Shown in pieces: positions 14,109-43,353 of a stretch of 64,000 nucleotides of DNA. Numbering within the stretch: the stretch's first letter is position 1; the number at the start of each line of letters is the position of its first letter. The notes beneath the pieces were generated by a model. It searched no databases and was not told where the DNA came from. It was given only the letters and a program-made list of their open reading frames with translations. The position numbers and the translations under genes were made by a program. Location of the stretch: NCBI GenBank assembly GCA_020429915.1, contig JAGQKV010000016.1, positions 69,137 through 133,136 on the forward strand. The letters run 5' to 3'. Source of the DNA: Candidatus Omnitrophota bacterium (lineage in GTDB: Bacteria > Omnitrophota > Gorgyraeia > Zapsychrales > Zapsychraceae).

Positions 14109-14483
14109 ATGACCATCGCTTATCTGTGTATCGTTATCAGTATTTTTATCCCGATATGTTGCGCGGGTTATGCCAAATTTTCCACCAAGGGCTATAACAA
14201 CCGTTCCCCGCGCGAATTCCTCTCGTCGCTGGAAGGCGCCGGCAAGCGCGCCAACTTCGCCCAGCAAAATTTCTATGAGACGTTTCCCGCCTTTGCCGTG
14301 GGCGTGGTCGTTGCCCACTTAATGGAGGCGGCGCAGTGGAAGATCGACTTTACCGCAGTGATATACGTCACCGGCCGTATTCTTTACGCGGTTTTTTATA
14401 TCGCCGATCAGCACATGCTGCGCTCAACGGCGTGGGCCGTGGCCTTCGGAGCGATGATCGCCCTGTATTTTATCGGCGGGTAA
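14109..14483 (+). CDS. MAPEG-family membrane protein (microsomal GST/LTC4-synthase-like)
   Basis: 4 TM helices and the VTGRILYAVFYI motif. The ATG at 14109 was chosen over the long Arg-rich upstream extension of the 13863 ORF. Confidence 0.6.
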   Translation: MTIAYLCIVISIFIPICCAGYAKFSTKGYNNRSPREFLSSLEGAGKRANFAQQNFYETFPAFAVGVVVAHLMEAAQWKIDFTAVIYVTGRILYAVFYIADQHMLRSTAWAVAFGAMIALYFIGG

Positions 14484-14577
14484 TCTCCGCCGGAGGGACC
14501 GCGGTTCCGTCACGCCGACGCGGCAGCAACTCCCTTATGAAAATTGTTCCCGATTTTAGACAAAGGAGCTCAGCAAC

Positions 14578-15876
14578 ATGAATGCCGCAACACGTGTGTT
14601 TGAGGAACTCAACTTTGAAATCAAACAGGATAACATATACTATCAAACCATCAACAACCTCCTGGCCGCGGCCGAACGGATCAATGCACCGCACCGTCTG
14701 CGCCTGATCCTGGCGCAACCCAAGAACGAATTGATCGTGCACTTCCCGGTTCGGATGGACGACGGGTCATTCCGGTTGTTCAAAGGTTATCGCGTCCAGC
14801 ATAATAACGTCCTGGGGCCGTACAAGGGCGGGATCCGTTACGACAATTCGGTCCACCTCGATCATATCAAGGCCCTGGCCGCAGTGATGACCATCAAATG
14901 CGCGCTGGTGCAGCTGCCGCTAGGCGGGGCAAAGGGCGGCGTGCAGTTTGATCCGCGCACCCTGTCGGCGGAGGAACTCATGCGCCTGACCCGGCGTTTT
15001 ACCAGCGCCTTGGGAAACAATATCGGTCCGGACATCGACATGCCCGCCCCCGACGTCGGGACCAACGCACAGATCATGGCCTGGATGGCCGACACCTACA
15101 TGAATCTGGATGCCAGCCGGAAGTTGAACGGGCTGGGAATCGTTACCGGCAAACCGTTGCATTTCGGCGGTTCGCACGGACGGGAAAAGGCCACCGGCCA
15201 GGGAGTTGTTTACGTCCTGGAAGAAATGCTTCCGGAGTACGGGATCGCCATGGACAAGACCACTTTCAGCCTGATCGGTTTCGGTAATGTCGGGTCCTGG
15301 ACGGGGAAACTGCTGCAGGAGCGCGGCGCGGTCCTGCGGGCGGTCGGCGACCACACCGGATTCCTGTATCGTGCCGAGGGCATCGACACCGTCCGGCTGG
15401 ACGAGTACGTGCGCCGGCATGGAGGGGTGGCCGGTTATCCGGATGCGGACGAAATCAGCGAGGAAGAATTCTATAAAGTCCAGGTCGATCTGTTTATCCC
15501 GGCGGCCCTGGAGCAGATGATCGACCGTCCGAAGGCGGAGCTGCTCAACTGCCGTGTCGTCGTTGAGGCCGCCAATATTCCGCTGCAACCGGAGGCGGAG
15601 AATTATCTGGTTGAGAAGGGTGTCGGCATCCTGCCGGCCGTCCTGTGCAATGCCGGCGGTGTGACGGTGAGTTTCTTTGAATGGAAGCAGAACCGGCAGG
15701 CCGAGACTTGGGACCTTGATGTTGTGGACCGGCAGCTGAAGATCATGATCACGCGGGCCGCGCGGCGGGTCAAGGAGATCGCCAGGGAAACGGGATCCGA
15801 CTTGCGCATGGCCGCCTATTGCGCCGCTTTGCAGCATATCGACCGCGTCTATGAAATCCGCGGGATATTTCCATAA
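14578..15876 (+). CDS. gdhA: Glutamate dehydrogenase (Glu/Leu/Phe/Val dehydrogenase family)
   Basis: KGGIRY, PLGGAKGGV and DMPAPDVGTN motifs. 432 aa. Confidence 0.9.
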   Translation: MNAATRVFEELNFEIKQDNIYYQTINNLLAAAERINAPHRLRLILAQPKNELIVHFPVRMDDGSFRLFKGYRVQHNNVLGPYKGGIRYDNSVHLDHIKALAAVMTIKCALVQLPLGGAKGGVQFDPRTLSAEELMRLTRRFTSALGNNIGPDIDMPAPDVGTNAQIMAWMADTYMNLDASRKLNGLGIVTGKPLHFGGSHGREKATGQGVVYVLEEMLPEYGIAMDKTTFSLIGFGNVGSWTGKLLQERGAVLRAVGDHTGFLYRAEGIDTVRLDEYVRRHGGVAGYPDADEISEEEFYKVQVDLFIPAALEQMIDRPKAELLNCRVVVEAANIPLQPEAENYLVEKGVGILPAVLCNAGGVTVSFFEWKQNRQAETWDLDVVDRQLKIMITRAARRVKEIARETGSDLRMAAYCAALQHIDRVYEIRGIFP

Positions 15877-15913
15877 TTAAGTTTACCGGCAACATCATCC
15901 CGGGTGGTCCGAT

Positions 15914-16255
15914 ATGGCATATGATTTTCACCTCGGAGAAGATCAACGAGAAGCATCGAGAAATCCACCCGTATTGCAGGTGGACTATTATGTGGCACAG
16001 GATTTTGTGGAGTGTGCCAAAGGATTGTTCAAGAGCAATGAGCATATTGCCCGTTTGGGAAAAATAGGTGACTATTATGGTCGCGAAGCAGAACTCCGGT
16101 ATTTGCCGGATGAATTTGACGCTCTGCTCGTGGGACTGGCCCGGCTCAAGCCTCAAGTGGAAAATAGGAACGTGTTGTCGTTTATAGGTACTCTTGAAGA
16201 TGTGATCAAAGAAGCGAAGACCGAGAACAAGACCCTATTCGGGTTTGCTGATTGA
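15914..16255 (+). CDS. Hypothetical protein in a locally low-GC (~48%) islet
   Basis: 113-aa ORF. The composition is clearly lower in GC than the flanks. Confidence 0.35.
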   Translation: MAYDFHLGEDQREASRNPPVLQVDYYVAQDFVECAKGLFKSNEHIARLGKIGDYYGREAELRYLPDEFDALLVGLARLKPQVENRNVLSFIGTLEDVIKEAKTENKTLFGFAD

Positions 16256-16339
16256 GAATGGTCCGGAAAAAAGGGTGACAACCGGCGGAATATCGACTAA
16301 CCTTTAAGTAGTCAATCCGACGATCCTGAGGAGTTAGGA

Positions 16340-16813
16340 ATGAAATTACAAAAAATCTGCACCGCTATGGCGGCTTTATTATTATTGGTTTCCGGGGCCG
16401 ACGCGCAAACCTGTCCGGTGTGCAAGGAGGAGTACGATCTGGCCTCGTCGCTGGCCGAAGCGGAATTCATTTTGCTGGTGGAATTGAAACGCGAGGGGCC
16501 GCGTAACGACAACGGCGAGGGATGGGGCGGCCCCGATTGGGTGGAAGTCGAAGTGAAGGGCCGTCTGCGCGGACGGCGATTGCCGCCGCGTATCAAGGTC
16601 AACTTTTGGGAAGGAACGTGCGCGAAGGGTTTTGATCTCGAATATGGGAAGGAATATGTCCTGTTGGTCGTCGAAAATGAAGTGTCGCGTAAGCCCTACC
16701 GTTTTGACGTGGTCCTGAACGGTTGCGGGATCAAGTCGCTGCCGGTGGAAGACGACTTCATCGTCATCAACGGCGCGCGCTGGACCGTGGAAGAATTCGA
16801 GTCGCTCCTGTAA
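16340..16813 (+). CDS. Hypothetical secreted protein with CPVC and two further Cys
   Basis: Signal peptide (LLLLVSGADAQ). Confidence 0.45.
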   Translation: MKLQKICTAMAALLLLVSGADAQTCPVCKEEYDLASSLAEAEFILLVELKREGPRNDNGEGWGGPDWVEVEVKGRLRGRRLPPRIKVNFWEGTCAKGFDLEYGKEYVLLVVENEVSRKPYRFDVVLNGCGIKSLPVEDDFIVINGARWTVEEFESLL

Positions 16814-16850
16814 GGGGCCTGCCTAATATCCAACCAAAATGGGGGATCCG

Positions 16851-17339
16851 ATGAAATATGTAGTCGCTTTGTGGCTGTTACTGGCCGGGATTGTCCCGCC
16901 GGTGTTCGCCGGACAGGCCCCGAAGTCGACCGGGTCGGTCGATACCTATACGGATTACGTCAAGATCCGTTACATGCCGTCGCGGTCCGGATTTATCAAG
17001 GAAAAAGAACCGGTGACCGAACTCAGCGGGGAAGCCAGCACCATCGTGGCCAAACATGACGGCTCCGTGATGGGGACGAACGAACAGATCAAGGACCTGT
17101 ACAAACGGGCCGCGGCGTTGCGGGCGGAAGGGATCGGTACCAATCAACAGCATTTTCATGTTGCGGTCACGCGCCTGGAGGTGTGCTACCGCGGGGAGAC
17201 CGTGACCCTCGAGTATGCGGGCGCCACCGGCGAAGAAAAGTTCGCCGCCTATGAGCAGGCCTGGCAGGAATTATATGCAGCGGCCTACCGGTTTCTGACG
17301 GATCGTTTGCAGCCGGGGCCGGCGGGAACGCAACCTTAG
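16851..17339 (+). CDS. Hypothetical secreted protein
   Basis: Signal peptide (MKYVVALWLLLAGIVPPVFAG). Confidence 0.45.
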   Translation: MKYVVALWLLLAGIVPPVFAGQAPKSTGSVDTYTDYVKIRYMPSRSGFIKEKEPVTELSGEASTIVAKHDGSVMGTNEQIKDLYKRAAALRAEGIGTNQQHFHVAVTRLEVCYRGETVTLEYAGATGEEKFAAYEQAWQELYAAAYRFLTDRLQPGPAGTQP

Positions 17340-17351
17340 GAAGGCGAGCCG

Positions 17352-18944
17352 ATGCGTAAAATCTTTCTGATCTTTGCCTCGCTGGTGATTTTGCATACCG
17401 TTCTGGCGGCCTTTTACTACCCGCCGCTGTTGTGGTCGTTGCTCGTCCTCGGACCATTGCTGGCGCTGGGGACGTACGACTTTTTCCAGCACCGTCACGC
17501 GATCCTGCGCAATTATCCCATCCTCGGTCATTTTCGTTACCTTCTTGAAGAGATTCGTCCTGAAATTTATCAGTACTTTATCGAAAGCAATACCTCCGGG
17601 CGGCCCTATCACCGCGAGGACCGTTCCCTGATTTATCAGCGCGCCAAGGGCGTACTCGATACGCTGCCCTTCGGCACGCAGCAGAACTTGTATGATATCG
17701 GCTACGAATGGGTCAATCATTCGCTGCGCCCGACGCATGTCCTGCCCGAAGCCCTGCGGGTGACCATCGGCGGGATCGACTGCAAGCAACCTTACCAGGC
17801 CAGCATCCTGAACATCAGCGCGATGAGTTACGGATCGCTGAGCAAGAACGCGATCATGGCCCTGAACCGCGGCGCCAAGATCGGCGGTTTCGCGCACAAT
17901 ACCGGCGAAGGCAGCATCAGCCCGTATCATCAACAGGGCGGCGATTTAATCTGGCAGATCGGCACCGGATATTTCGGCTGCCGGACCCCCGAGGGCAAGT
18001 TTTGTGAAGAGACCTTTGCCGACCGGGCCGCATTGCCACAGGTCAAGATGATCGAGGTCAAGCTGTCCCAGGGCGCCAAGCCGGGACACGGCGGAATCCT
18101 GCCGGGCAGCAAAGTGACCGAGGAAATCGCTGCCATTCGCGGTGTCCCCATGGGCCGGGACGTACTATCCCCGCCGGGGCATACCGCTTTTAGCACGCCG
18201 CTGGAGTTGCTGGGATTTCTGCAGAAGTTACGCGAACGCAGCGGCGGCAAACCGGTGGGCTTTAAACTGTGCGTAGGTAAACGCCGCGAATTTATTGCCA
18301 TCTGCAAGGCGATGATCGAGACCGGCATCACACCCGACTTCATCACCGTCGACGGCGGTGAGGGCGGGACCGGGGCCGCCCCGCTGGAGTTTTCCAACAG
18401 CATCGGCTCGCCGCTGGTGGAGGGGTTAATCTTCGTCAGCAACTGCCTGACCGGATTCGATCTGCGTCACCGGATCAAGATCATTGCCAGCGGCAAGGTC
18501 AGCACCGGTTTCGGTATCATCAAGCGTATCGCCATCGGCGCGGATGTGTGCTGCGCGGCGCGCGCGATGATGATGTCGCTGGGATGCATTCAGGCGCTGA
18601 AGTGCAACACCAACAAATGCCCCACCGGCGTAGCCACCCAAGACCCGGCGCTGATTAAGGGATTGATCGTCGAAGACAAGGACAAACGGGTCGCCAACTT
18701 TCACAAGGAAACGGTCGAGAGCGTGGCCGAGATGCTGGGGGCGATGGGGTTGCATCATACCGCGGACCTGCGACCGTGGCACGTCGTCCGCCGGGTCAGC
18801 GCCACCAAGGTGAGACACTACGGGGAATTGTACCGCTACGTGGACCCCGGATCCCTGCTTAACGAACCGTATCCCGAACATTACGTCAGGGCCATGCAGT
18901 CATCCGCGTCCGATACCTTTGAGTACCGGGCCTTGCATGGCTGA
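17352..18944 (+). CDS. Membrane-anchored FMN-binding glutamate synthase family protein (GltB domain-2-like, COG0069)
   Basis: N-terminal TM helix. ISAMSYGSLS, KLSQGAKPGHGG and DGGEGGTGAAP motifs. Confidence 0.85.
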   Translation: MRKIFLIFASLVILHTVLAAFYYPPLLWSLLVLGPLLALGTYDFFQHRHAILRNYPILGHFRYLLEEIRPEIYQYFIESNTSGRPYHREDRSLIYQRAKGVLDTLPFGTQQNLYDIGYEWVNHSLRPTHVLPEALRVTIGGIDCKQPYQASILNISAMSYGSLSKNAIMALNRGAKIGGFAHNTGEGSISPYHQQGGDLIWQIGTGYFGCRTPEGKFCEETFADRAALPQVKMIEVKLSQGAKPGHGGILPGSKVTEEIAAIRGVPMGRDVLSPPGHTAFSTPLELLGFLQKLRERSGGKPVGFKLCVGKRREFIAICKAMIETGITPDFITVDGGEGGTGAAPLEFSNSIGSPLVEGLIFVSNCLTGFDLRHRIKIIASGKVSTGFGIIKRIAIGADVCCAARAMMMSLGCIQALKCNTNKCPTGVATQDPALIKGLIVEDKDKRVANFHKETVESVAEMLGAMGLHHTADLRPWHVVRRVSATKVRHYGELYRYVDPGSLLNEPYPEHYVRAMQSSASDTFEYRALHG

Positions 18945-18965
18945 GCCCAACAATCCAGGAGACGC

Positions 18966-19251
18966 CATGACCGATCCCGACCGCATCCCCATGAAGTGGG
19001 AAGAAGAGACGGAGAGAAAATTCAACATTGTCCTCGAACAGATTCCGGCGTTGATCCGGGGCGTCGCCGAAACCTTGGTCAGCAAGAAGGCGGTGCGCAT
19101 CGTACGCGAAGACAACCGCCAGCTGGTCGAGGAAAAAGACATGGTGGCCGCCTTTTTCTCGGAGACGCCGGCCGGATTCCGCAAGGATATGATCCGCAGT
19201 CTTGAGGAACTGGGAGTGGACTACAAAGCCTACGGGTTCAACGCCGACTAG
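18966..19251 (+). CDS. PCP_red-domain (protochlorophyllide reductase ChlB C-terminal-like) family protein
   Basis: MKWEEETERKFNIVLEQIPALIRGVA matches the PCP_red core (W..E....IP..R). RBS aggaga upstream of the ATG at 18966. Confidence 0.5.
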
Positions 19252-34470: not shown

Positions 34471-34671
34471 ATGCCCCAAGGAACAGTAAAATGGTTCAGC
34501 GACCAAAAGGGATACGGATTCATCTCATATGAAGGCGGCGATGACGTTTTCGTTCATCACTCCGCTATTCAAATGGACGGATTCAAGACCCTTTCTGAAG
34601 GTCAAGCGGTCGAATTCGAGATCGAAGAAGGCCCGAAAGGCGCTCAAGCCGCCAACGTGACCGTCAGCTAA
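34471..34671 (+). CDS. cspA: Cold-shock protein (CspA family)
   Basis: [30 protein letters not shown] (RNP1/RNP2 motifs). 66 aa. Confidence 0.9.
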
Positions 34672-34777: not shown

Positions 34778-35761
34778 ATGAAACACATTACACCTGAAAA
34801 GACGACGCATCACGCCGAGCTCCTCGGTAACCGCGTCCGCAAACAATACCGTCATCTGCGCAAGCGCTTCAAGCGCGCCGGCATCGATTGCTTCCGCCTT
34901 TACGACTGGGATATCCCCGAGGTGCGGGCGGTGGTCGACTGGTGTGCGGGTCACGCGGTTATCGCCGAATACGTGCGCAAACAGACCGGGCCGGAGTGGC
35001 TGCCGGCCATGGCCGAGGCAGTGCGCGCGGCGCTGGACCTGCCCGCAGATCATGTCCACGTCAAACAGCGTCGCACCAAGACGGAGGATGAACTGCGCTA
35101 CACGCGGCTGGCCGAAGACAACAAACGCTTCACGGTCAGCGAACGCGACCTCAAATTTTGGGTCAACCTCGATGATTTTCTCGACACCGGGCTTTATTCC
35201 GATCACCGCGACACCCGGGTGCTGGTCCGCGACTTGGCGGCCGGGCAAGACTTTCTGAATCTGTTTGCCTACACGGGCGCGTTTTCCTGCGCAGCCGCAG
35301 CCGGAGAGGCGGCTTCGACCGGAACCGTGGACCGTTCGCAGACCAACCTCGACTGGGCGCGCGACAACATGCAGCTCAACGGATTTGCGGGCGACGCGCA
35401 CCGCTTTGAACAGGCCGACGTCGACACCTTTCTCAGCCGGGCCGCCAAGCGGGGGGAGAGCTGGTCGCTCGTCTTCTGTGATCCGCCGTCCTTCTTCAAA
35501 GACGTCAAGGCGGGCAAGGCTTTCGATATCAACCGTGATCATATTCGTCTGCTGCGCCAGGTTCTGAAAGTAACTCGCCCGGGAGGCACGGTTTTCTTTT
35601 CCACCAATCATCAACGCTTTGAACCCCGGCTGACGGAACTGTCCGTGGACGGTCTGCGGGAACTCACGCCCAAGACCATACCCGAGGACTATCGCAACCG
35701 GCGTATCCACCGCTGTTGGCGGATGACGGCGCGGGGATCCGGCCGGCCGAACCGCGGTTGA
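34778..35761 (+). CDS. Class I SAM-dependent RNA methyltransferase (RlmI/RlmK C-terminal-domain-like, COG1092)
   Basis: LNLFAYTGAFSCAAAA (motif I) and VFCDPPSF (motif IV DPPxF). Confidence 0.65.
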   Translation: MKHITPEKTTHHAELLGNRVRKQYRHLRKRFKRAGIDCFRLYDWDIPEVRAVVDWCAGHAVIAEYVRKQTGPEWLPAMAEAVRAALDLPADHVHVKQRRTKTEDELRYTRLAEDNKRFTVSERDLKFWVNLDDFLDTGLYSDHRDTRVLVRDLAAGQDFLNLFAYTGAFSCAAAAGEAASTGTVDRSQTNLDWARDNMQLNGFAGDAHRFEQADVDTFLSRAAKRGESWSLVFCDPPSFFKDVKAGKAFDINRDHIRLLRQVLKVTRPGGTVFFSTNHQRFEPRLTELSVDGLRELTPKTIPEDYRNRRIHRCWRMTARGSGRPNRG

Positions 35762-35906
35762 AAGCCCGAAAATTAACTGTACAAATTTCTTTCCGGGGCC
35801 GTCTTAGGCCTCTTTCGAAAAAATAATATTTTGTCAATTTGGTGTTTTAAACGTCTGTAGATGCCGTTCTGGGGTGGGTTCCCGAAAAACGGGAAAATAA
35901 TTTGTT

Positions 35907-35935
35907 GACATAACGCCCGGAATGTAATATTCAAA
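35907..35935 (+). promoter_or_regulatory. Candidate sigma70 promoter TTGACA-N17-TATTCA in an AT-rich region upstream of the biosynthetic operon
   Basis: Read directly. Confidence 0.3.
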
Positions 35936-35993
35936 ACATATACAAACAATCGCGAAACGCCGTACGGACACCCGGTGTATATAGGATGGGCAA

Positions 35994-36024
35994 AGGAATC
36001 TGGAAGACGGATTCCTTATTTTTA
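35994..36024 (+). promoter_or_regulatory. Short hairpin plus U-run (aggaatc-tggaagacg-gattcct-tattttta) inside the ~170-nt leader: possible attenuator or riboswitch expression platform
   Basis: Read directly. Weak stem. Confidence 0.25.
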
Positions 36025-36107
36025 TGGGTACAGATTAACAGTAATGACCAGGCAGGAGGCCCGTCCTTACAGACACCAACCCCTGTCGTACAAGCATCGG
36101 GAGAAAA

Positions 36108-36530
36108 ATGAAAACAAATACTCAGGGATCAAGAATGGGTGTTGCCTGCGCAGCCGGACCAGCCAAGGCCGTAAAGGATCAGGTGTGGGGCATCGCCAGC
36201 AGTTTTGACATTTATGACTGCGATCCGGCGACCATCCGGGACGCCGACCGTATCCGCGACTTTGTGGCGCAACTGTGCGAGCTGATCGAAATGAAGCGCT
36301 TCGGCGAAACCCAAGTGGTCCACTTCGGCGAAGACGAGAAGGTGGCCGGTTTTTCCATGGTCCAGCTGATCGAAACGTCGCTCATCTCGGCGCACTTCGC
36401 GAATCTCACCAACACCGTCTACCTCGACGTCTTCAGCTGCAAACCTTACGACATCCAGATTGTGGAACGTTTTGCCGTTGATTTCTTCCAGGGTTCGCAT
36501 TGCATCATACACACGTCCTACCGCTATTGA
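36108..36530 (+). CDS. Pyruvoyl-dependent S-adenosylmethionine decarboxylase family protein (SpeH/class 1b-like)
   Basis: GIASSFDIYDCD, VQLIETSLISAHFANLTNTVYLDVFSCKPYD (ES self-cleavage site plus the DVFTC-like motif). Confidence 0.6.
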   Translation: MKTNTQGSRMGVACAAGPAKAVKDQVWGIASSFDIYDCDPATIRDADRIRDFVAQLCELIEMKRFGETQVVHFGEDEKVAGFSMVQLIETSLISAHFANLTNTVYLDVFSCKPYDIQIVERFAVDFFQGSHCIIHTSYRY

Positions 36531-36531
36531 G

Positions 36532-37470
36532 ATGTTCACGCTGACATCCGTCACCGACCCGGGCGTATGCCGGGACCTGTGGGAGCGGTACATTCCGCAG
36601 GAACACATCACCGATCAATGGGAAGTCCGCGAATGTTTTCGCGAGGCCTTCGGCAGTGAGTTGCTCTTTCTGCATGTGACTGAGGACAACGAGCCGGTCG
36701 GCCTCCTGCCGCTGTGTTATGTTCCGGAACAGGATTACTATGCCTATTTTCCGGGTGAGCACTGGCAGGGCAAGACCTGGCTGGAGCGCAACCGGCTGCC
36801 CGTGCGGGATGCCGATATCGCCCGAGCCCTGCTGGACTGGTGTGAAGAGCGTCGCATGGGTTACCATCTGCGTTATCTTCTGCCGGACGACCGTCTGCAA
36901 AAGGGCGGTCCGTTGGTCGACGAAATCGGGTACCTCTTCCGGCCGGCAGACTTCGACTATAATATGGACCGGTATTTTGACGGGTTTTCCCGTAAGTCGA
37001 TCAAATCCATCCTGAAAGAGGTGCGGGTCTTTGAGGCACGCGGCCTCGAGTATCGCCTGGACGATTTCAGTGATTTCGACCTGCTGGTCGCGATGAACCG
37101 GGAACGTTTCGGGCAAACCTCATACTTCGCGGACCCGCGATTTACCGACGGCATGGAAAAGCTGACGGATCTGATGCAGGCGCGTGGCTGGCTGCGTATG
37201 GTCACCGTCTTGGTGGAGGGCCGGGCCGCAGCGGTGGACATGGGCTGCCTTTATAACGGCACGCTGACATTGCTGGCCGGCGGCACCGGTTCCGATTTTC
37301 GAGGGATTGCCAAGGTGATCAATCTTTATCACATGCGCCGCGCCTGTGAAGAACGGCTGGAAGAGGTCGATTTTCTGTGCGGTGACTTTCTCTGGAAACC
37401 GATGTTTCATCTTCATCCCAGGCCGCTCTATCAGCTGAGCAACCGGCCGGATTTAATCCACAAAGGATAA
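36532..37470 (+). CDS. FemAB-like GNAT-fold (Acetyltransf_6 / CelD-like) protein
   Basis: The C-terminal half (VTVLVEGRAAAVDMGCLYNGTLTLLAGG...) resembles FemAB-type GNAT. The start follows 2 nt after the upstream stop. Confidence 0.45.
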   Translation: MFTLTSVTDPGVCRDLWERYIPQEHITDQWEVRECFREAFGSELLFLHVTEDNEPVGLLPLCYVPEQDYYAYFPGEHWQGKTWLERNRLPVRDADIARALLDWCEERRMGYHLRYLLPDDRLQKGGPLVDEIGYLFRPADFDYNMDRYFDGFSRKSIKSILKEVRVFEARGLEYRLDDFSDFDLLVAMNRERFGQTSYFADPRFTDGMEKLTDLMQARGWLRMVTVLVEGRAAAVDMGCLYNGTLTLLAGGTGSDFRGIAKVINLYHMRRACEERLEEVDFLCGDFLWKPMFHLHPRPLYQLSNRPDLIHKG

Positions 37471-37474
37471 GCCG

Positions 37475-38773
37475 ATGTCCCCCCGTCCGCAGGTGCTCGT
37501 CATTGGGACGACTGCCGACTATATTGATGATTTGCGCCAACGCGTCCCCGGACGGTTATTGTTCCTGACGGACCCGGCGGAGAGGGACCGTTTCACCGGA
37601 CCGGCACCGGCGGGGCATGAGGAAATCTTGTGTCCTCTGGAAGATTCGGATCTGGTGACGACCGCGGTGCGCCGTTTTGTGGAGCGTCACGGTGTCGAGA
37701 TCGCCGGGATTACCTGCTACGACTGCGAATCCCTGGCGTTGACGGCACGAATTGCGGGTGCCTTGGGGTTGCCTTTTCATTCGCCGGCGGCGATCGGGCG
37801 GGCGCGGTCGAAGTTCCACGCCAAACTGCGCTGGCAGGAGGCGGGGCTGACCGCGCCGCGGGTCAAGCTCATGCGCAACATTACGGATGTCCTCGAGTTC
37901 TGGCGCGCGGCGGGCCGGGATATCGTTCTCAAGCCGCTGGCGGGCAGCGGCAGTGAGTTTGTCTTTCGCTGCCGGGACGAACAGGCGTGTTTGCAGGCCA
38001 TACGGACGATGCAGGAACGGATTCCCGTGCATCCCAACCGCCGGATGTATGCTTTGGAACGGCTGCCGGACCATGTTTCTCCGGTGGACACGTTTTGCGC
38101 CGAAACCTACGTTGGCGGGGCCGAGTACAGCTGCGACGCGGTGATCAGCAACGGAGAATTGCGCGTGGTGCGTCTCACTAGAAAACTTCCCCTTGACGAC
38201 GAGGAGTTCGGGACCACGATGGCGTATCAGATACTCAATGACTATCCGCGGTATCTGCCGGAGCGGGAGCTGCGTGTCGTGTTAAAGAACGCGGCCCGGA
38301 GCCTGGGACTGTATCATGCCTGGTTTATGGCGGATTTCAAACTTTTCAGAAACCGGATATGGTTATTGGAGGTGACTCCGCGGCCCGGCGGGGATTGCCT
38401 GCCGGCCCTGGTGTCCGCTGCCGGAGGTCCGGATATACGTTTGGCCGTCCTCGATTTTGCCGCCGGTCAACGCGTGTCACTACCTCAGCTCGCAGAATAC
38501 CGTCCGCTGGTGGGATTGCAATGCTTTGCCAGCCGGGAGGGACGCCTGAGTCAACTGGAAATGCCCGAAGACTTTGTGCGATCCAAACTGGTGCAGGTGT
38601 GCCTTAACAAGCGTCCCGGTGACGTTGTCCGGCTGCCGCCGGAAGACTATGATTCACGCAAGTTGGGTACGATTATTTTCGAACCGGTCGCACGAATCCC
38701 CGTGGAGGCCCAGTGTCGCGAGATACGCAAGGCTTTAAAGGTGGAGATGGAGGAGACGGCTCATGCAACGTGA
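37475..38773 (+). CDS. ATP-grasp domain carboxylate-amine ligase
   Basis: SKFHAKLRWQEAGLTAPR, IVLKPLAGSGSEFVF, GAEYSCDAV, WLLEVTPRPGGD. Confidence 0.7.
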   Translation: MSPRPQVLVIGTTADYIDDLRQRVPGRLLFLTDPAERDRFTGPAPAGHEEILCPLEDSDLVTTAVRRFVERHGVEIAGITCYDCESLALTARIAGALGLPFHSPAAIGRARSKFHAKLRWQEAGLTAPRVKLMRNITDVLEFWRAAGRDIVLKPLAGSGSEFVFRCRDEQACLQAIRTMQERIPVHPNRRMYALERLPDHVSPVDTFCAETYVGGAEYSCDAVISNGELRVVRLTRKLPLDDEEFGTTMAYQILNDYPRYLPERELRVVLKNAARSLGLYHAWFMADFKLFRNRIWLLEVTPRPGGDCLPALVSAAGGPDIRLAVLDFAAGQRVSLPQLAEYRPLVGLQCFASREGRLSQLEMPEDFVRSKLVQVCLNKRPGDVVRLPPEDYDSRKLGTIIFEPVARIPVEAQCREIRKALKVEMEETAHAT

Positions 38774-40061
38774 GGAAATTCTCCGCCGGGCGGCTGAAAT
38801 GCTCGATCAGGAAGTTCCCGGACTGGACAGAGACCTGCTGCGCAATCATGTGCGGCGTTTCCTGGACCGGCGCGACGTATACCTCAGCGCGCGTGAGGAA
38901 AAGGGATCTCCCCTGTACCTGTTCGACGAACGGGCCTTGGTCAAGGCGGCCGAAGAATTCCGCGGCACTTTTCAGGCGGCGATTCCGGATGTGTCCTGCT
39001 TTTACGCCATAAAAAGCAATTATCACTCATTCTTTCTGGGAACGCTGGCACGGCTCGGTTACGGTCTGGACGTTTCCAGCGGAGATGAACTTATGAGGGC
39101 CGTTGAATTCGGCCCGACTGCTGTTATTTTCAGCGGGCCGGGAAAAACGCCCGCCGAGCTTGCGGCCGCCTGTTCCGTGTCCGGCCGTGTCACTGTGTTG
39201 ATCGACAGTTTCGGTGAACTCGACCGTCTGCAGGCCGCCGCCGAGGCGGCCGCCGTCAACGTGACGGCCGGGGTGCGCGTTTCCGTCGAAGACCGCGGAT
39301 TGTGGCGCAAGTTCGGTATTCCGGTCAGCCGGCTTCAGGAGTTTCTCCGCCGCGCAGCGAAGTGTTCGCGCGTGCGGGTCGAGGGGATCCAGTACCATAC
39401 CAGCTGGAATCTCGACACCGCCTCCCATGAACGCTTTTTAAACAAACTCGGCGGTCACCTGCAAGCCCTGACAACCGCGGAACGGGAGGTGCTACATTTT
39501 CTCGATATCGGCGGCGGGTTTTGGCCGGCGGAGGGAGAGTGGCTGCACGCCGCAGTCACCCCGTCCGGACAGTTGCGCCATTTTGTTGACCCCGGCATCC
39601 TGCCCGGCAGTGACCACCGATGTTCCCGGGCCTTGACGATTCACGATTTCGCCCAAGGCATCCGCAGTGCCTTGGAACGGGACATCTATCCGTACTGGAA
39701 ACCGCAGATTTATCTGGAGCCCGGACGCTGGATATGCCATTCGGCCATGCACATCCTGCTGACCGTCGTCGACAAGAAATCGCCGGACCTGGTCATTACT
39801 GACGGCGGGACCAATAGCGTCGGTTGGGAGCGTTACGAACATGATTACTTTCCGGTCATTAATCTTTCGCGGCCGTCCCTGCGTGAAAAAAGTTGTCTGA
39901 TTTGCGGGGCGCTGTGCACTCCGCACGACCTTTGGGGATATCACTATTTTGGCGAGGATATTGAGGCCGGAGATGTCCTGTTGATTCCTGATCAGGGCGC
40001 GTATACCTACAGCCTCCGCCAGCAATTTATCAAGTCCCTTCCCGGCGAAGCCGTTATCTGA
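38763..40061 (+). CDS. PLP-dependent fold-III decarboxylase (ornithine/diaminopimelate/carboxynorspermidine decarboxylase family)
   Basis: FYAIKSNYH (PLP-Lys motif), IFSGPGKT, GGG..., C-terminal beta-domain. 11-nt overlap with the upstream gene. Confidence 0.8.
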   Translation: MQREEILRRAAEMLDQEVPGLDRDLLRNHVRRFLDRRDVYLSAREEKGSPLYLFDERALVKAAEEFRGTFQAAIPDVSCFYAIKSNYHSFFLGTLARLGYGLDVSSGDELMRAVEFGPTAVIFSGPGKTPAELAAACSVSGRVTVLIDSFGELDRLQAAAEAAAVNVTAGVRVSVEDRGLWRKFGIPVSRLQEFLRRAAKCSRVRVEGIQYHTSWNLDTASHERFLNKLGGHLQALTTAEREVLHFLDIGGGFWPAEGEWLHAAVTPSGQLRHFVDPGILPGSDHRCSRALTIHDFAQGIRSALERDIYPYWKPQIYLEPGRWICHSAMHILLTVVDKKSPDLVITDGGTNSVGWERYEHDYFPVINLSRPSLREKSCLICGALCTPHDLWGYHYFGEDIEAGDVLLIPDQGAYTYSLRQQFIKSLPGEAVI

Positions 40062-40126
40062 CGCGTTTCCGTCCGTGACCCGACCCGGAGCTTGACAACC
40101 GGACGGCGTCCCGATACATTACCCTT

Positions 40127-40396
40127 ATGAAAGCTTTCCTTGCCGGCATCATGATCGTATTGATGACTTTGGTCTTCACAACCGGCGGCGCAGTCCTTTC
40201 GGCGGACGCGGCCGTTGAGGCCCACGAACAACTTCCCGACGAAATCCAGGATTCCCCCGAAGAAGAGGCCGACATGCCCGAATTTCACTTCGCGCCCGAC
40301 CGGCTGCGCCTGCGATTAAATGCCCATCCCACCGCGAATCTCTACCGCGATCCCGTCATTGCCGTTTTAATCAGACCCCCCAAGACACACGCGTAA
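40127..40396 (+). CDS. Small acidic secreted hypothetical protein
   Basis: Signal peptide. 89 aa. Confidence 0.35.
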   Translation: MKAFLAGIMIVLMTLVFTTGGAVLSADAAVEAHEQLPDEIQDSPEEEADMPEFHFAPDRLRLRLNAHPTANLYRDPVIAVLIRPPKTHA

Positions 40397-40492
40397 ACAA
40401 CCCATCGGTGAAACCGTGTCGTCGCGGGGTGTGACCGACCGTCACCACCCCGGGCGTCCGCGTCGACGACTGTTTACGCAGGGGGTGTCTCT

Positions 40493-41365
40493 GTGCCTTT
40501 CTCGTTCTTTCTCTGCTTGTATGAGCATTTTCAAAAGAAGCATGCCGAAGACTTTGATCAAAACAACAGGATCCTTTCGCCGGAGGATATCCGGGGACTG
40601 CTGCGCAGCGCCGACCGCGCGCGGGCGCTGCGCGTCCTGCGGTCCGCCGTCGTGGACCATCACCCGGTGGACGGTGTCCCGTACCATTTGCGGTATCCGG
40701 TCAATGAGCTCTTTTATCACGACCGTTTTAAGCGCGCGGTCATCGCCGCGGGCATCGGCCGCGAGTTGGAGCCGGTCGATAAACGCGAGCTGGAGGACGC
40801 GCTGGCGATACTCCATGCCCTGATCGATCCGGGGTATAATGCCGGTTTTGTGGTCCTGCTGGCTTGGGACGCCCTTGGGCATCTGAACGCCGGAGAGCCT
40901 GCCGTCATGGAGCGGTTCGCGCCGGACTTACGGCGGGCCCTGGCCGGACCCGTAGGAGGCGCGATCGGCGCGCTGGTCTATTGTGACCACGCGCGTTCGG
41001 CAGGAACGGCAAATGCCGTTATGCCTATTCTTTTGGCCGCCGCCGGCGAAGTCCGCTTCCGGCTGCAGAAGGTGTTACTGCGTTATTATCTGGAGCAATT
41101 TCCCGCCGCGATGGCCGGTCCGGCGATCGCAACCTTGTCCGCGGGGTCGGGCATCGGGCGGTTCGTCCGGGAAGTCCGCGACGGCCGATCCTGGTCGCAG
41201 GCCGACATTACCGAGGGGTTGGTCCAGATCGATCTCTTCGGCGTGAGTCAGGAACGGACCTTTTGGGACAATACACCCCATGCCGAAGTCGGCCGGCTGG
41301 TCACGGCCGCGGCGCAGGAGTATCTGCGCATCTGCGGGGCCTACACCAACGGAGTCCGTAGCTAG
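40493..41365 (+). CDS. Hypothetical protein
   Basis: 290-aa ORF at typical GC with no recognisable motif. Confidence 0.4.
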   Translation: MPFSFFLCLYEHFQKKHAEDFDQNNRILSPEDIRGLLRSADRARALRVLRSAVVDHHPVDGVPYHLRYPVNELFYHDRFKRAVIAAGIGRELEPVDKRELEDALAILHALIDPGYNAGFVVLLAWDALGHLNAGEPAVMERFAPDLRRALAGPVGGAIGALVYCDHARSAGTANAVMPILLAAAGEVRFRLQKVLLRYYLEQFPAAMAGPAIATLSAGSGIGRFVREVRDGRSWSQADITEGLVQIDLFGVSQERTFWDNTPHAEVGRLVTAAAQEYLRICGAYTNGVRS

Positions 41366-41382
41366 GGCCTGTTTCACCGCAT

Positions 41383-41411
41383 TTCCCACCTTGCCAACTT
41401 TATGCTACAAT
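41383..41411 (+). promoter_or_regulatory. Candidate promoter TTCCCA-N17-TACAAT
   Basis: Read directly. The -35 element is weak. Confidence 0.2.
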
Positions 41412-41516
41412 AATCGCTCCACCCGATTTGAATTCGAACCGATGCATAACGGCGGGAGGAGGATACGAGTGTCATCGTGGAGCGCTTCCGGCCCAACCTT
41501 TATCCAAGGAGTTTGA

Positions 41517-42404
41517 ATGAGCTCAGCTGTCTTTTCCAAAAAAGAGGCCCTTTCGCACGGGTTTTATCAAACACAAAAATACATCGGCCTTATCTTGCTC
41601 ATCGGCCTGACCTTTTTTCTCATGAGCATCGTCACCGGTATCTTCGACGCCTTTGCCGGCAAGGGAACCTTGAGCCAACCGCCGCATACGGAGATGGACA
41701 TCACGGAGGAGCAGTCCAACATGCTGATGAAAGTCCTGGTGGACGACGGTTATGTCACCAAGCTCGGCTTGGTCACCGGGAAATTACGGTATCTGGACGA
41801 TCCTAACGAACTGGATCTGCCGTTCCAGCTGGAACCTAAGCGCAAGGAGATCTTCGCCTATCTGCAGCAGTTCCGCTACAAACTTCCGTTTCCGCGGCCC
41901 GTTTTCTTTGTGCTGCGGGTATTGCTGTGGTCCGTGACCATGCTGATGAATATCGGGTACATCAAAATGACACTGCTGATGTCCCGCGATCAAAAACCGC
42001 GATTGTCCGAATTGTTCTCCAACCTCGACTATCTTATCGCCTACATTCTCGGCACCCTGTGTTATACCGCGGCCTTGGTGGGAGGGTTGCTTTTATTGAT
42101 CGTCCCGGGGATCATCTTCGGCGTTATGTGTCAGTTGTATACGTTCCTGATTATCGACCAGGGCCTGGGGCCGATCGAGTCGCTGAAGCGCAGTGCGCAG
42201 CTGACCAAAGGTTCGCGGATGAACCTCTTTGTGCTGGGCATACTCTACGTATTGATCAATATCGCCGGCGCGCTGTGCTTGCTGGTCGGCCTTATCTGGA
42301 GCATTCCCACGACGTCGATCGCCATGGCCTACGTATTCGATCGGCTGTCAGCCGCCGAATCCGGCGGCAGCGGAAGCCTGGAGGATATTATCAAGTCGGT
42401 TTAG
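41517..42404 (+). CDS. Polytopic membrane protein (DUF975-like architecture)
   Basis: 295 aa with 5-6 TM segments. Confidence 0.45.
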   Translation: MSSAVFSKKEALSHGFYQTQKYIGLILLIGLTFFLMSIVTGIFDAFAGKGTLSQPPHTEMDITEEQSNMLMKVLVDDGYVTKLGLVTGKLRYLDDPNELDLPFQLEPKRKEIFAYLQQFRYKLPFPRPVFFVLRVLLWSVTMLMNIGYIKMTLLMSRDQKPRLSELFSNLDYLIAYILGTLCYTAALVGGLLLLIVPGIIFGVMCQLYTFLIIDQGLGPIESLKRSAQLTKGSRMNLFVLGILYVLINIAGALCLLVGLIWSIPTTSIAMAYVFDRLSAAESGGSGSLEDIIKSV

Positions 42405-42431
42405 ACTATCATCTGGAGAAAGACACATCGC

Positions 42432-42725
42432 ATGAAACGGCAATTGACACCGATCATCATGACAGCCGTGATCGCGGCTACGGTTTCAGGTAATCCCGTC
42501 GCGGCAGACGTTAAGGAAAAATCCAGGAAGACCGAACTGGTCACCTACGCGACCGGCCCGGCGGGGGAGGCCGATCCCGGCCGGCTGGGTGTTCGGGAGG
42601 TGGAGGTGGTCCGGCCGGACAGCGACGGATGGGCCGCGCTCAAGACCGGAGGGCGTTTCGTATTCGATGTGCTCACCCTGCCGGTGGAAATCGTTCGGGT
42701 CCTGTGGGAGTCGGCCACGGAATAG
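42432..42725 (+). CDS. Small secreted hypothetical protein
   Basis: Signal peptide. 97 aa. Confidence 0.35.
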   Translation: MKRQLTPIIMTAVIAATVSGNPVAADVKEKSRKTELVTYATGPAGEADPGRLGVREVEVVRPDSDGWAALKTGGRFVFDVLTLPVEIVRVLWESATE

Positions 42726-42764
42726 ATAAGTGATAAGGGATAGGTGATAAGTGATAAGAGATTT
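42726..42764 (+). repeat. Tandem octamer array ATAAGTGATAAGGGATAGGTGATAAGTGATAAGAGATTTG (GTGATAAG/GGGATAAG family)
   Basis: Read directly. It lies between a stop codon and the next gene's signal-peptide ATG. Confidence 0.5.
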
Positions 42765-42777
42765 GAACATATATCGG

Positions 42778-43353
42778 ATGTTGATCACGGTGTGCGGGCC
42801 GGGTCTGGTGCTTACCGGTGTTTTGTTCACGGCTCCCCGGGCCGGGGCATTGACGACGATGGATTTGATGAGCTGGCAGTACCCGACGGATCAGGAATTA
42901 ACGGGTCTGGCGGTGGAGCACGGTTTAATCAAGCCGGATCTGCGCGATCGCTACAAGGCGAATGATACGGCTACCAACTGGAAGTTGTGGATTATCCGTT
43001 CACGGGAGGAAAAACGGCTGCTGATCAAACAGATGAAGGATGTCTTTGCCGAAGCCGACAATGCCGTTATCCTGAAGCCGGACGAACACTATGTGGACGA
43101 AATCAATATCCGGATTCAGAATATCCTCAAAGAGGGGAATATCGACTATTTCAACAAGGTGACCGTCCCGACGCTGTTCAAGAGTCTGGCGATCATTGAA
43201 GGCGACTATAACGACGGCCGTACCCAGCCGTTGCAGCTGATCCGCAATTGGTTCGGTGAAACCGGTGTCGAACAGATGAAGGAGCGTTTTCCGGAACGCT
43301 ATGAACAGTTGAAACAGCAGGAACTGGACGCGGCTTTGCAACCCCGACCGTAA
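42778..43353 (+). CDS. Hypothetical secreted protein
   Basis: Signal peptide MLITVCGPGLVLTGVLFTAPRAGA. The track ORF began at a GTG inside the repeat. Confidence 0.45.
   Translation: MLITVCGPGLVLTGVLFTAPRAGALTTMDLMSWQYPTDQELTGLAVEHGLIKPDLRDRYKANDTATNWKLWIIRSREEKRLLIKQMKDVFAEADNAVILKPDEHYVDEINIRIQNILKEGNIDYFNKVTVPTLFKSLAIIEGDYNDGRTQPLQLIRNWFGETGVEQMKERFPERYEQLKQQELDAALQPRP

Follow-up and report, generated by a model that had tools for sequence, protein, structure and literature searches.

Which molecule would be made by a small operon that places a pyruvoyl-dependent decarboxylase beside two predicted amide-forming enzymes and a second decarboxylase? The question is raised by positions 36108-40061 of a 64,000-nucleotide stretch of a Candidatus Omnitrophota genome (GenBank assembly GCA_020429915.1, contig JAGQKV010000016.1, positions 69,137 to 133,136 of the forward strand), which we call the window. 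We suggest that the product of the four open reading frames (ORFs), ORF1 to ORF4, is an amide-linked amino-acid conjugate of putrescine, either an aminoacyl- or peptidyl-diamine or a 'pseudo-polyamine', and give this reading a probability of about 0.45. A first-pass annotation of the window had already proposed an amide-linked conjugate of amino acid and polyamine, and at that level of confidence it stays the best reading of the locus. The four families of enzymes and the general scheme are familiar, but the arrangement and its product are not, and no description of this four-gene combination was found in the searchable full-text literature.

A four-gene cassette shared by distant phyla

The genes occupy 36108-36530 (ORF1, 140 aa), 36532-37470 (ORF2, 312 aa), 37475-38773 (ORF3, 432 aa) and 38763-40061 (ORF4, 432 aa), all on the forward strand. 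They had been taken for a single operon, and this is borne out by the common strand, the tight junctions and the recurrence of the same order in dozens of genomes that are only distantly related. Read from the sequence, ORF2 and ORF3 are separated by 4 nt (TAAgccgATG) and ORF3 and ORF4 overlap by 11 nt, with GGAGGAG ahead of the ORF4 start, both as described before; the first junction (TGAgATG) has a spacer of 1 nt and not of 2 nt as had been given. The longest mechanical ORF for ORF2 opens at TTG 36460, whereas homologues from other loci align from ATG 36532, which directly follows the end of ORF1. The four folds assigned earlier, a pyruvoyl decarboxylase, a GNAT, an ATP-grasp ligase and a pyridoxal-phosphate (PLP) decarboxylase, were recovered by Pfam, by profile searches against the PDB and by Foldseek. 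None of the proteins reached an NCBIfam equivalog cut-off, so we regard them as divergent superfamily members and not as orthologues of named enzymes. Near-identical relatives are in a Candidatus Omnitrophica metagenome-assembled genome (MAG; GCA_020429985.1, locus L001), where the four proteins are 94-99% identical and the gene order is equal.

To survey the cassette more broadly, a profile of 30 ATP-grasp homologues was searched against species-representative genomes, and taxonomy and loci were taken from the best 80 of the 361 species genomes with relatives. These 80 were all MAGs and came from more than 10 phyla, among them Omnitrophota, Hydrogenedentota, Thermodesulfobacteriota/Desulfobacterales, Planctomycetota (Sedimentisphaerales, Pirellulales, Brocadiaceae), Zixibacteria, Ignavibacteriales, Lentisphaerota, Krumholzibacteriia, Anaerolineales, Armatimonadota and Verrucomicrobiota. 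When the four window proteins were placed on the loci by tblastn, the genes for GNAT, ATP-grasp and decarboxylase were adjacent and in this order wherever the contig allowed. A gene of the ORF1 type, which is named SpeDC below, lay immediately upstream of this trio in 62 of the 72 loci with enough upstream DNA; the four genes are thus strongly co-conserved. At E<=1e-30, the ATP-grasp family comprised 305 clusters (50% identity) among 1.84 billion cluster representatives.

Natural fusions point in the same direction. One protein of 752 aa (P0365) joins the GNAT to the ATP-grasp enzyme, and three of about 865 aa each (P0422, P0423 and P0458, from three distinct 50%-identity clusters) join the ATP-grasp enzyme to the PLP decarboxylase; one fusion of the latter kind sits in a locus with the order SpeDC, GNAT, fusion (L094, 8001-10604). 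The constant order across phyla and these fusions show that the cassette genes work together. In a stand-alone protein of 1232 aa (P0417), two ATP-grasp domains precede the decarboxylase, an architecture from which the GNAT step would seem to form an amide bond, a task that a second ATP-grasp enzyme can take over. A double ATP-grasp protein (P0478) was also seen. The flanking genes change from locus to locus, and the cassette is therefore self-contained; PIG-L, MFS, RimK/RLAN, GT4 and M20 genes are sporadic neighbours. Within 1.2 kb of the cassette, no conserved ORF of 25-120 aa that could code for a carrier protein or precursor peptide was found in about 85 loci, since the small ORFs that did recur were shadows of TetR and sigma-54 activator genes. 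This favours small molecules as substrates.

The same observations bear on a different proposal, in which the cassette makes a specialised bioactive peptidyl-amine (a toxin, an inhibitor of proteases, a signal or a metallophore), comparable to phevamine or E-64. On this view, ORF4 would convert an amino acid to an amine, two amino acids would be attached by the two ligases, and the supply of a precursor by SpeDC would be auxiliary. P0417 fits two ligations and one amine-forming step, a distant ATP-grasp relative (P0489) is embedded at the end of a nonribosomal peptide synthetase (A-C-T-TE), about half of the loci have a TetR-family gene directly upstream and on the same strand, and a resistance-nodulation-division efflux pump is next to one locus. 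Phevamine and E-64 themselves are precedents. In the phevamine (hsv) operon of Pseudomonas syringae, which includes the amidinotransferase HsvA, the ATP-grasp ligases HsvC and HsvB attach Val and, after it, Phe to a polyamine (PMC6187163). Like the cassette in our reading, it is a small operon that supplies or modifies a polyamine and has two successive amide-bond formers. However, the cassette has a Fem-type GNAT for one of the ligases (except in P0417), on the amine side it has two decarboxylases where hsv has an amidinotransferase, and it is spread in uncultured anaerobes, whereas hsv is a virulence operon of a plant pathogen. Moreover, it is single, compact and uniform over several hundred species, including some with genomes of about 2 Mb, and has no conserved genes for tailoring, export or immunity and no close homologue on known plasmids. 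ORF4 also lacks an acid for basic side chains and is thus unlikely to be a plain diamine-forming enzyme. On balance, a specialised peptidyl-amine is conceivable, but we think it unlikely.

Predicted activities of the four enzymes

ORF1 had been described as a pyruvoyl enzyme resembling S-adenosylmethionine (SAM) decarboxylase. The family stands, as the protein falls inside the AdoMetDC-like pyruvoyl enzymes (PF02675, AdoMet_dc; E 7e-21, 75 bits, cut-off 25); SAM decarboxylase as the activity does not. Against the SAM decarboxylase equivalog TIGR03330 (SAM_DCase) it scores 23.8 bits, below the cut-off of 75.65, and with phmmer even E<=1 brought up none of the solved AdoMetDC structures. Among anomalous homologues of SpeD, many are L-ornithine decarboxylases (ODCs) of the pyruvoyl-dependent kind, named SpeDC, which are inactive on Arg or Lys (Li, Liang, Phillips, Michael, JBC 2023, PMC10407285). 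In the SpeD1SpeD2 fusion of D. phosphitoxidans, S229 of the C-terminal domain is needed for ODC activity (PMC10407285). Over 114 aa, ORF1 shares 65% identity with this C-terminal domain, and it gives no alignment to the N-terminal AdoMetDC domain; the comparison sequence came from the text of Fig. S5 of that paper, with errors of optical character recognition repaired by hand.

The residues agree with this placement. Self-cleavage is predicted between T90 and S91, in the motif ETS, so that S91 would become the pyruvoyl group, and with H96 and C111 the processing and catalytic Ser, His and Cys are all present. Q86, T90, F97 and Y105 match the diagnostic Gln, Thr, Phe and Tyr of SpeDC, which are common to both verified SpeDC domains in Fig. 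S5. The diagnostic and catalytic residues lie within QLIETSLISAHF...VYLDVFSC, and 48 ORF1 homologues keep the motif QLIETSLISxHF...YLDVFSC with hardly any change. Across phyla, homologues of ORF1 have 67-77% identity, compared to 37-56% for the other three proteins, and the closest ones on long contigs were all found within this cassette. By sequence, then, ORF1 is a member of the SpeDC clade and a predicted L-ornithine decarboxylase rather than a SAM decarboxylase, and as such it would supply putrescine and no aminopropyl donor. The likeness to SpeDC lies in the protein, not in its partners: the speDC genes that have been described stand with speD/speE, with casdh/casdc, with hss or with speY, and PMC10407285 does not mention a context of Fem-type GNAT, ATP-grasp and decarboxylase genes.

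In the public annotation of the sister genome (L001, 8661), ORF1 has 131 aa, starts nine codons later (36135 in the window) and is named S-adenosylmethionine decarboxylase. We favour the start at 36108 because Omnitrophota homologues have N-terminal extensions (MEKTQ...) and a Shine-Dalgarno sequence, GGGAGA, precedes this ATG. Another Omnitrophota locus (L004) has a further SpeDC-type gene that stands alone (15433-15846; 71% identity to ORF1), 3 kb downstream of the cassette, where it adjoins genes for DUF4914, a DMT_6 transporter and Fur.

ORF4 is a PLP decarboxylase of the alanine-racemase fold (PF02784, Orn_Arg_deC_N, with PF00278, Orn_DAP_Arg_deC; E 1e-25). Its best NCBIfam match is lysA (TIGR01048), at 134.7 bits and below the cut-off of 297.9, and it scores 67.9 bits against the curated FslC model, below the cut-off of 500. 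Sequence matches in the PDB include diaminopimelate decarboxylase (DapDC), lysine/ornithine decarboxylase, FigC (7kh2) and, over its full length, BtrK. The catalytic set is in place: the Schiff-base lysine K84, H212, a glycine loop at 250-252, E319 and R322 in EPGR, C385 and Y414. However, the loop C385-T-P-H388-D, in which CTPHD is invariant in 72 ORF4 homologues, aligns to CMQHD of FigC and not to CESGD of DapDC, so that the acid beside the catalytic Cys is missing and C385-T386 stands where DapDC has C-E. In diaminopimelate, ornithine, lysine and arginine decarboxylases this acidic residue binds the side-chain amine of the substrate, and an Arg in the specificity helix of DapDC additionally accommodates the distal carboxylate; in FigC the acid is replaced, and H357 was modelled in contact with the citryl moiety (PMC7857480). 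By alignment alone, ORF4 has a Trp at the position of the Arg in 'MMRPAMY' of MjDAPDC. An ODC/DapDC-type enzyme had been proposed for this gene; the fold is kept, while these loop and helix residues speak against the specificity, and ORF4 is unlikely to be a plain decarboxylase of diaminopimelate, Orn, Lys or Arg.

Instead, the sequence of ORF4 resembles the enzymes of 'clade 2' (FigC, SbnH, MccE and BtrK), whose substrates are conjugated amino acids, and we predict that it decarboxylates the amino-acid moiety of a conjugate rather than free diaminopimelate, Orn or Lys. FigC/FslC, SbnH and BtrK are marked by a non-acidic residue after the catalytic Cys, a ligand-contacting His or Lys at +3 and a dedicated ligase partner; T386 and H388 of ORF4 fit the first two traits, and the ATP-grasp enzyme, which is adjacent in all loci and fused to it in four clusters, fits the third. 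In the rhizoferrin route, the N-citrylornithine synthetase FigA/FslA acts before the N-citrylornithine decarboxylase FigC/FslC (PMC7857480), so that ligation comes first and the conjugated amino acid is then decarboxylated. The proposed cassette logic is similar, and the His at +3 is like that of FigC, but FigA is an NRPS-independent siderophore synthetase and not an ATP-grasp enzyme, and the FigC route avoids free putrescine whereas the cassette carries a predicted putrescine-forming enzyme. Butirosin synthesis offers another comparison, with an ATP-grasp enzyme (BtrJ), an alanine-racemase-fold PLP decarboxylase (BtrK), a carrier protein (BtrI) and a papain-like acyltransferase (BtrH). It likewise couples ATP-grasp ligation to decarboxylation of the attached amino acid; it has no pyruvoyl decarboxylase or Fem-type GNAT, and the cassette has no conserved carrier-protein gene in the interval of 1.2 kb searched for ORFs of 25-120 aa. 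Compared to DapDC and ODC, ORF4 has an insertion of about 40 residues (residues ~253-296, window ~39520-39650); the alignments break off at 253 and restart at 297, and a conserved GGGFWP...GEW flanks the start of the insertion.

The names found in databases would suggest a much simpler picture, with ORF1 as a SAM decarboxylase for spermidine, ORF4 as LysA for lysine and the GNAT and ATP-grasp genes adjacent by coincidence. Its basis is the name given to ORF1 in the near-identical genome and the rank of lysA as best NCBIfam match of ORF4. Both scores are far under the cut-offs, however, and in the verified fusion enzyme it is the ODC domain, not the AdoMetDC one, that ORF1 aligns to. An E. coli strain without speD did not regain spermidine synthesis from the SpeDC proteins that were assayed (PMC10407285). 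No spermidine-synthase Pfam family was found in any annotated cassette neighbourhood, which agrees with the earlier remark that this is not the canonical route of SpeD/SpeH and SpeE. ORF4 lacks both the C-loop acid and the aligned specificity-helix Arg of DapDC, and the adjacency is kept across phyla and backed by fusions. We therefore give the database names very little credence.

ORF3 (37475-38773) belongs to the ATP-grasp enzymes (PF13535, ATP-grasp_4; E 8e-10), with a weak ATPgrasp_N match. The C-terminal domain of L-amino-acid ligases, LAL_C2 (PF18603), is matched weakly as well (14 bits, cut-off 29.4); it is precomputed for many ORF3 homologues and reaches 28.9 bits in P0365. A profile search of the PDB gave 4dim (98 bits), the L-amino-acid ligase BL00235 (3vot; 74 bits) and also BacD. 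In the AlphaFold model (predicted local distance difference test, pLDDT, 92.1), Foldseek ranked 3vot/BL00235 first, with template-modelling (TM) scores of 0.75-0.80, together with RizA and BacD/YwfE, and biotin carboxylases and PurK came behind. By profile search and by model, ORF3 is thus one of the carboxylate-amine ligases that form amides, and its type is that of the L-amino-acid ligases.

ATP-grasp enzymes and Fem-type GNATs also modify proteins, and we considered whether the cassette may place an amine side chain on a translation factor, ribosomal protein or tRNA, as in glutamylation by RimK, lysylation of EF-P and hypusination. In three loci (L092, 10035-12390; L093; L026), a second amidoligase system made up of RLAN, a RimK ATP-grasp and a GNAT-DUF3335-C39 protein lies directly downstream. 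However, no candidate target gene is conserved beside the cassette, the closest relatives of ORF3 are dipeptide ligases of small molecules and not RimK, and a pyruvoyl ornithine decarboxylase would have no obvious role. Modification of a macromolecule is therefore quite improbable in our view.

ORF2 (36532-37470) matches PF13480 (Acetyltransf_6; E 3e-21, 77 bits). Its AlphaFold model, built from an alignment of 38 homologues, has a pLDDT of 92.6 and resembles FemX, the aminoacyl-tRNA-dependent peptide synthases Sbb17 and Sba18 and the aminoacyl-phosphatidylglycerol synthase domains (A-PGS/L-PGS/MprF) most closely among PDB structures in Foldseek (E ~1e-12 to 1e-10, TM ~0.6). As far as a model can establish it, the fold is a tandem GNAT of the Fem/MprF type. 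GNAT ligases of this type use aminoacyl-tRNA, and ORF2 is predicted to transfer an aminoacyl group to an amine, with aminoacyl-tRNA as the probable donor. With FemX and Sbb17/Sba18 it shares the tandem architecture, although identity to them is just 12-18% at a TM of ~0.6, and a peptidoglycan precursor or an aminosugar is an unlikely acceptor.

That these structural relatives act on peptidoglycan precursors or phosphatidylglycerol nevertheless suggests a role at the cell surface. The trio might make an amino-acid-derived amine and transfer it to an exopolysaccharide, to a precursor of peptidoglycan or to the head group of a lipid, with SpeDC supplying a diamine, in a way that resembles FemX, MprF or the uncharacterised pairs of FemAB-like protein and PLP decarboxylase in PEP-CTERM/exosortase loci. 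There are weak matches to the exosortase models, of ORF4 to TIGR03099 (103.8 bits) and of ORF2 to TIGR03019 (FemAB, PEP-CTERM/exosortase-A-associated; 13.3 bits). In one locus of Desulfobacterales (L012), the trio comes after asparagine-synthase-like and glycosyltransferase genes, and in another (L018) the next genes code for a C39-like peptidase, for a second Acetyltransf_6 protein and for a GT4 glycosyltransferase. Both exosortase scores are far under their cut-offs (478.45 and 260.35 bits), however, and glycan genes are neighbours in few loci, most neighbours being unrelated housekeeping genes. No mur, eps or exosortase gene is among the conserved neighbours, and no Pfam membrane or transporter domain was found in ORF1 to ORF4. 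Decoration of the cell surface is thus an improbable function of this cassette.

A putative amide-linked conjugate of putrescine

Taken together, the four predicted activities can be arranged into a short pathway in which none of them is idle. ORF1, after processing itself, would decarboxylate L-ornithine to putrescine, as its 65% identity to the assayed ODC domain suggests. ORF3 would then phosphorylate the carboxylate of an amino acid and join it to an amine, most simply that of putrescine; a dicarboxylic amino acid may be ligated through a carboxyl group that leaves an alpha-amino-acid end free. ORF4 would remove the alpha-carboxyl of the attached moiety, for example of Glu or Asp linked by the side chain, giving 4-aminobutyryl- or beta-alanyl-putrescine. 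This substrate is proposed from the active-site loop. If ORF4 acted first on the free amino acid and ORF3 ligated the resulting amine-bearing acid afterwards, the product would be equal, and the natural fusions show a close coupling of these two enzymes. Finally, ORF2 would aminoacylate a further free amine, probably from aminoacyl-tRNA. The logic has parallels in known systems: HsvC and HsvB for two additions to a polyamine, FigA/FigC and BtrJ/BtrK for ligation followed by decarboxylation, and FemX and Sbb17 for the aminoacylation of amines from tRNA. The exact order of the steps and the identity of the amino acids are doubtful, and we put them forward with much reserve.

Several points weigh against a putrescine conjugate. 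About 10 loci of Desulfobacterota have the trio and no SpeDC gene within 10 kb, and P0417 has neither a SpeDC nor a GNAT neighbour, so putrescine may be dispensable as a building block. The carboxylates that L-amino-acid ligases activate are normally those in the alpha position, with amino acids as nucleophiles; if ORF3 were an ordinary enzyme of this kind, a diamino-acid acceptor would be needed for ORF4, and there would seem to be no use for SpeDC. The GNAT could use acyl-CoA, and tandem GNATs that do so (VipF and the clavulanate tandem GNAT) are present at lower ranks in the Foldseek list of ORF2. For ornithine, the kcat/Km of the SpeDC enzymes that were assayed is low (PMC10407285), and another physiological substrate is conceivable. 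All substrates proposed here are read from folds and a few residues.

A bolder idea is that the cassette provides a route, independent of SAM and of reductant, to an amide-containing pseudo-polyamine that serves as the main long-chain polycation or as a protective metabolite. In this scheme, N-(beta-alanyl)- or N-(4-aminobutyryl)-putrescine, for example, would be aminoacylated in a tRNA-dependent step and would replace or complement spermidine in Omnitrophota, Desulfobacterota, Planctomycetota, Zixibacteria, Hydrogenedentota and others, that is, in hundreds of uncultured anaerobic lineages. We regard this idea as speculative and rather unlikely. For the amide-linked conjugate of putrescine as such, a known parallel is glutathionylspermidine synthetase/amidase, in which an ATP-dependent ligase joins the carboxylate of a peptide to the amine of a polyamine and has a papain-like amidase as its partner. 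The ligase family differs from that of the cassette, and there is no thiol evidence for the cassette. The amidase may be compared with a C39-like gene found beside 11 cassettes; the window has no such gene.

Surroundings of the cassette and their meaning

The C39-like gene codes for a papain-fold protein of about 245 aa (Peptidase_C39_2/C39) and adjoins the cassette in 11 Desulfobacterota loci (L018, 12660-13397; L012, L035, L036, L041, L050, L057, L064, L070, L073 and L081). It comes after the cassette, is a further likeness to butirosin synthesis and recalls the BtrH-type acyltransferases or the amidase half of glutathionylspermidine synthetase/amidase. In L018 of Desulfobacterales, the genes past the trio (14117-19196) code for the second Acetyltransf_6 protein, GT4, a protein of 420 aa that matches only the anticodon-binding domain CysS_C and a ThuA/GFO-IDH-MocA oxidoreductase. 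This set has a loosely mycothiol- or bacillithiol-like logic and is not conserved elsewhere. A pathway for a low-molecular-weight thiol, suggested by the CysS_C protein and GT4 near L018 and by a CysRS near L004, was dropped because these genes are not conserved with the cassette.

Regulation of the cassette appears to differ between phyla, as it involves TetR, sigma-54 or neither. Matches to sigma-54-type promoters (TGGCAC-N5-xTGCT) lie 94-366 nt upstream of the first cassette gene in 11 Desulfobacterota loci (L029, L045, L059, L069, L074, L080, L081, L083 and L088-L090), with activator genes divergent or adjacent. No TetR gene and no sigma-54 promoter or activator was found in the window or in the other Omnitrophota loci. 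In six loci (L021, L037, L042, L044, L052 and L058), short ORFs with repeats such as VSFDYIVSFDYIVSFD lie ~700-1000 nt upstream of the cassette, before TetR; the tandem DNA repeats upstream of TetR in loci of the Planctomycetota type may be operator arrays.

In the window, the forward-strand region 35762-36107 (346 nt) before ORF1 is AT-rich as described earlier, with a GC content of 0.43 compared to 0.57 for the window. It includes a terminator-like hairpin at 35879-35895, which is probably the terminator of the upstream methyltransferase gene, followed by TTGACA at 35905. Between this TTGACA and the ORF1 start there is a second terminator-like hairpin of 10 bp, AAGGAATCTGGAAGACGGATTCCTT, at 35993-36017 (fold z-score -3.2), with a T-run, ATTTTTAT, to 36026, about 90 nt before ORF1. 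The first-pass annotation had spoken of a structured leader, and this shrinks to the local hairpin. Rfam gave nothing at gathering thresholds in the whole window and nothing at E<=1 in 35700-36200, and a riboswitch or other known RNA in the leader was rejected on these searches. An alignment of the regions 5' of ORF1 from eight Omnitrophota loci had no conserved element, and the near-identical genome alone keeps the hairpin with its T-run (35993-36026). An attenuator is conceivable here, as is the terminator of a small RNA, and any regulatory role is putative; as the leader is not conserved among the Omnitrophota loci, the idea of an attenuator is drawn from the local hairpin alone.

The upstream neighbours in the window are genes for a hemerythrin, a cold-shock protein (34471-34671, forward strand) and a SAM-dependent methyltransferase. 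At least seven further loci (L006, L008, L016, L022, L031, L046 and L069) also have cold-shock (CSD) genes no more than a few kb from the cassette, which in L006 and L008 are about 260 nt before the start of the ORF1 homologue. This proximity may be due to chance, because csp genes are multi-copy. Downstream there are five small hypothetical genes and then UbiB. The five genes (40127-43353, forward strand; 89, 290, 295, 97 and 200 aa) were seen solely in the near-identical L001, so the conserved unit ends at 40061, where it had been drawn before, and their proteins have no Pfam family above cut-off. The first, of 89 aa, has an N-terminus like a signal peptide. A promoter-like element (TTGACA-17-TACATT) is present at 40092, 30 nt past the ORF4 stop, and there is no terminator between ORF4 and the five genes, which may be co-transcribed with it. 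No tRNA genes were found in the window, and a search of it for anti-phage defence gave no PADLOC match. An origin from a mobile element was rejected, as there was no homologue above 30% identity among 72,556 plasmids.

Polyamine metabolism is regarded as well mapped, yet this set of four enzymes is present in several hundred species from more than 10 phyla, and none of the cassette hosts examined is cultured. It ties the recently discovered SpeDC class to two amide-forming chemistries and an apparent conjugate decarboxylase. If accepted as they stand, labels such as S-adenosylmethionine decarboxylase for the first gene or lysA for the fourth would mislead metabolic reconstructions from MAGs. 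Because the cassette is only about 4 kb long, needs no partner genes and could feasibly be expressed in a heterologous host, the question is directly testable. If its product is a new polyamine conjugate or pseudo-polyamine, the cassette would add a branch to polyamine biochemistry and would help to explain how polycations are supplied in small-genome anaerobes such as Omnitrophota.

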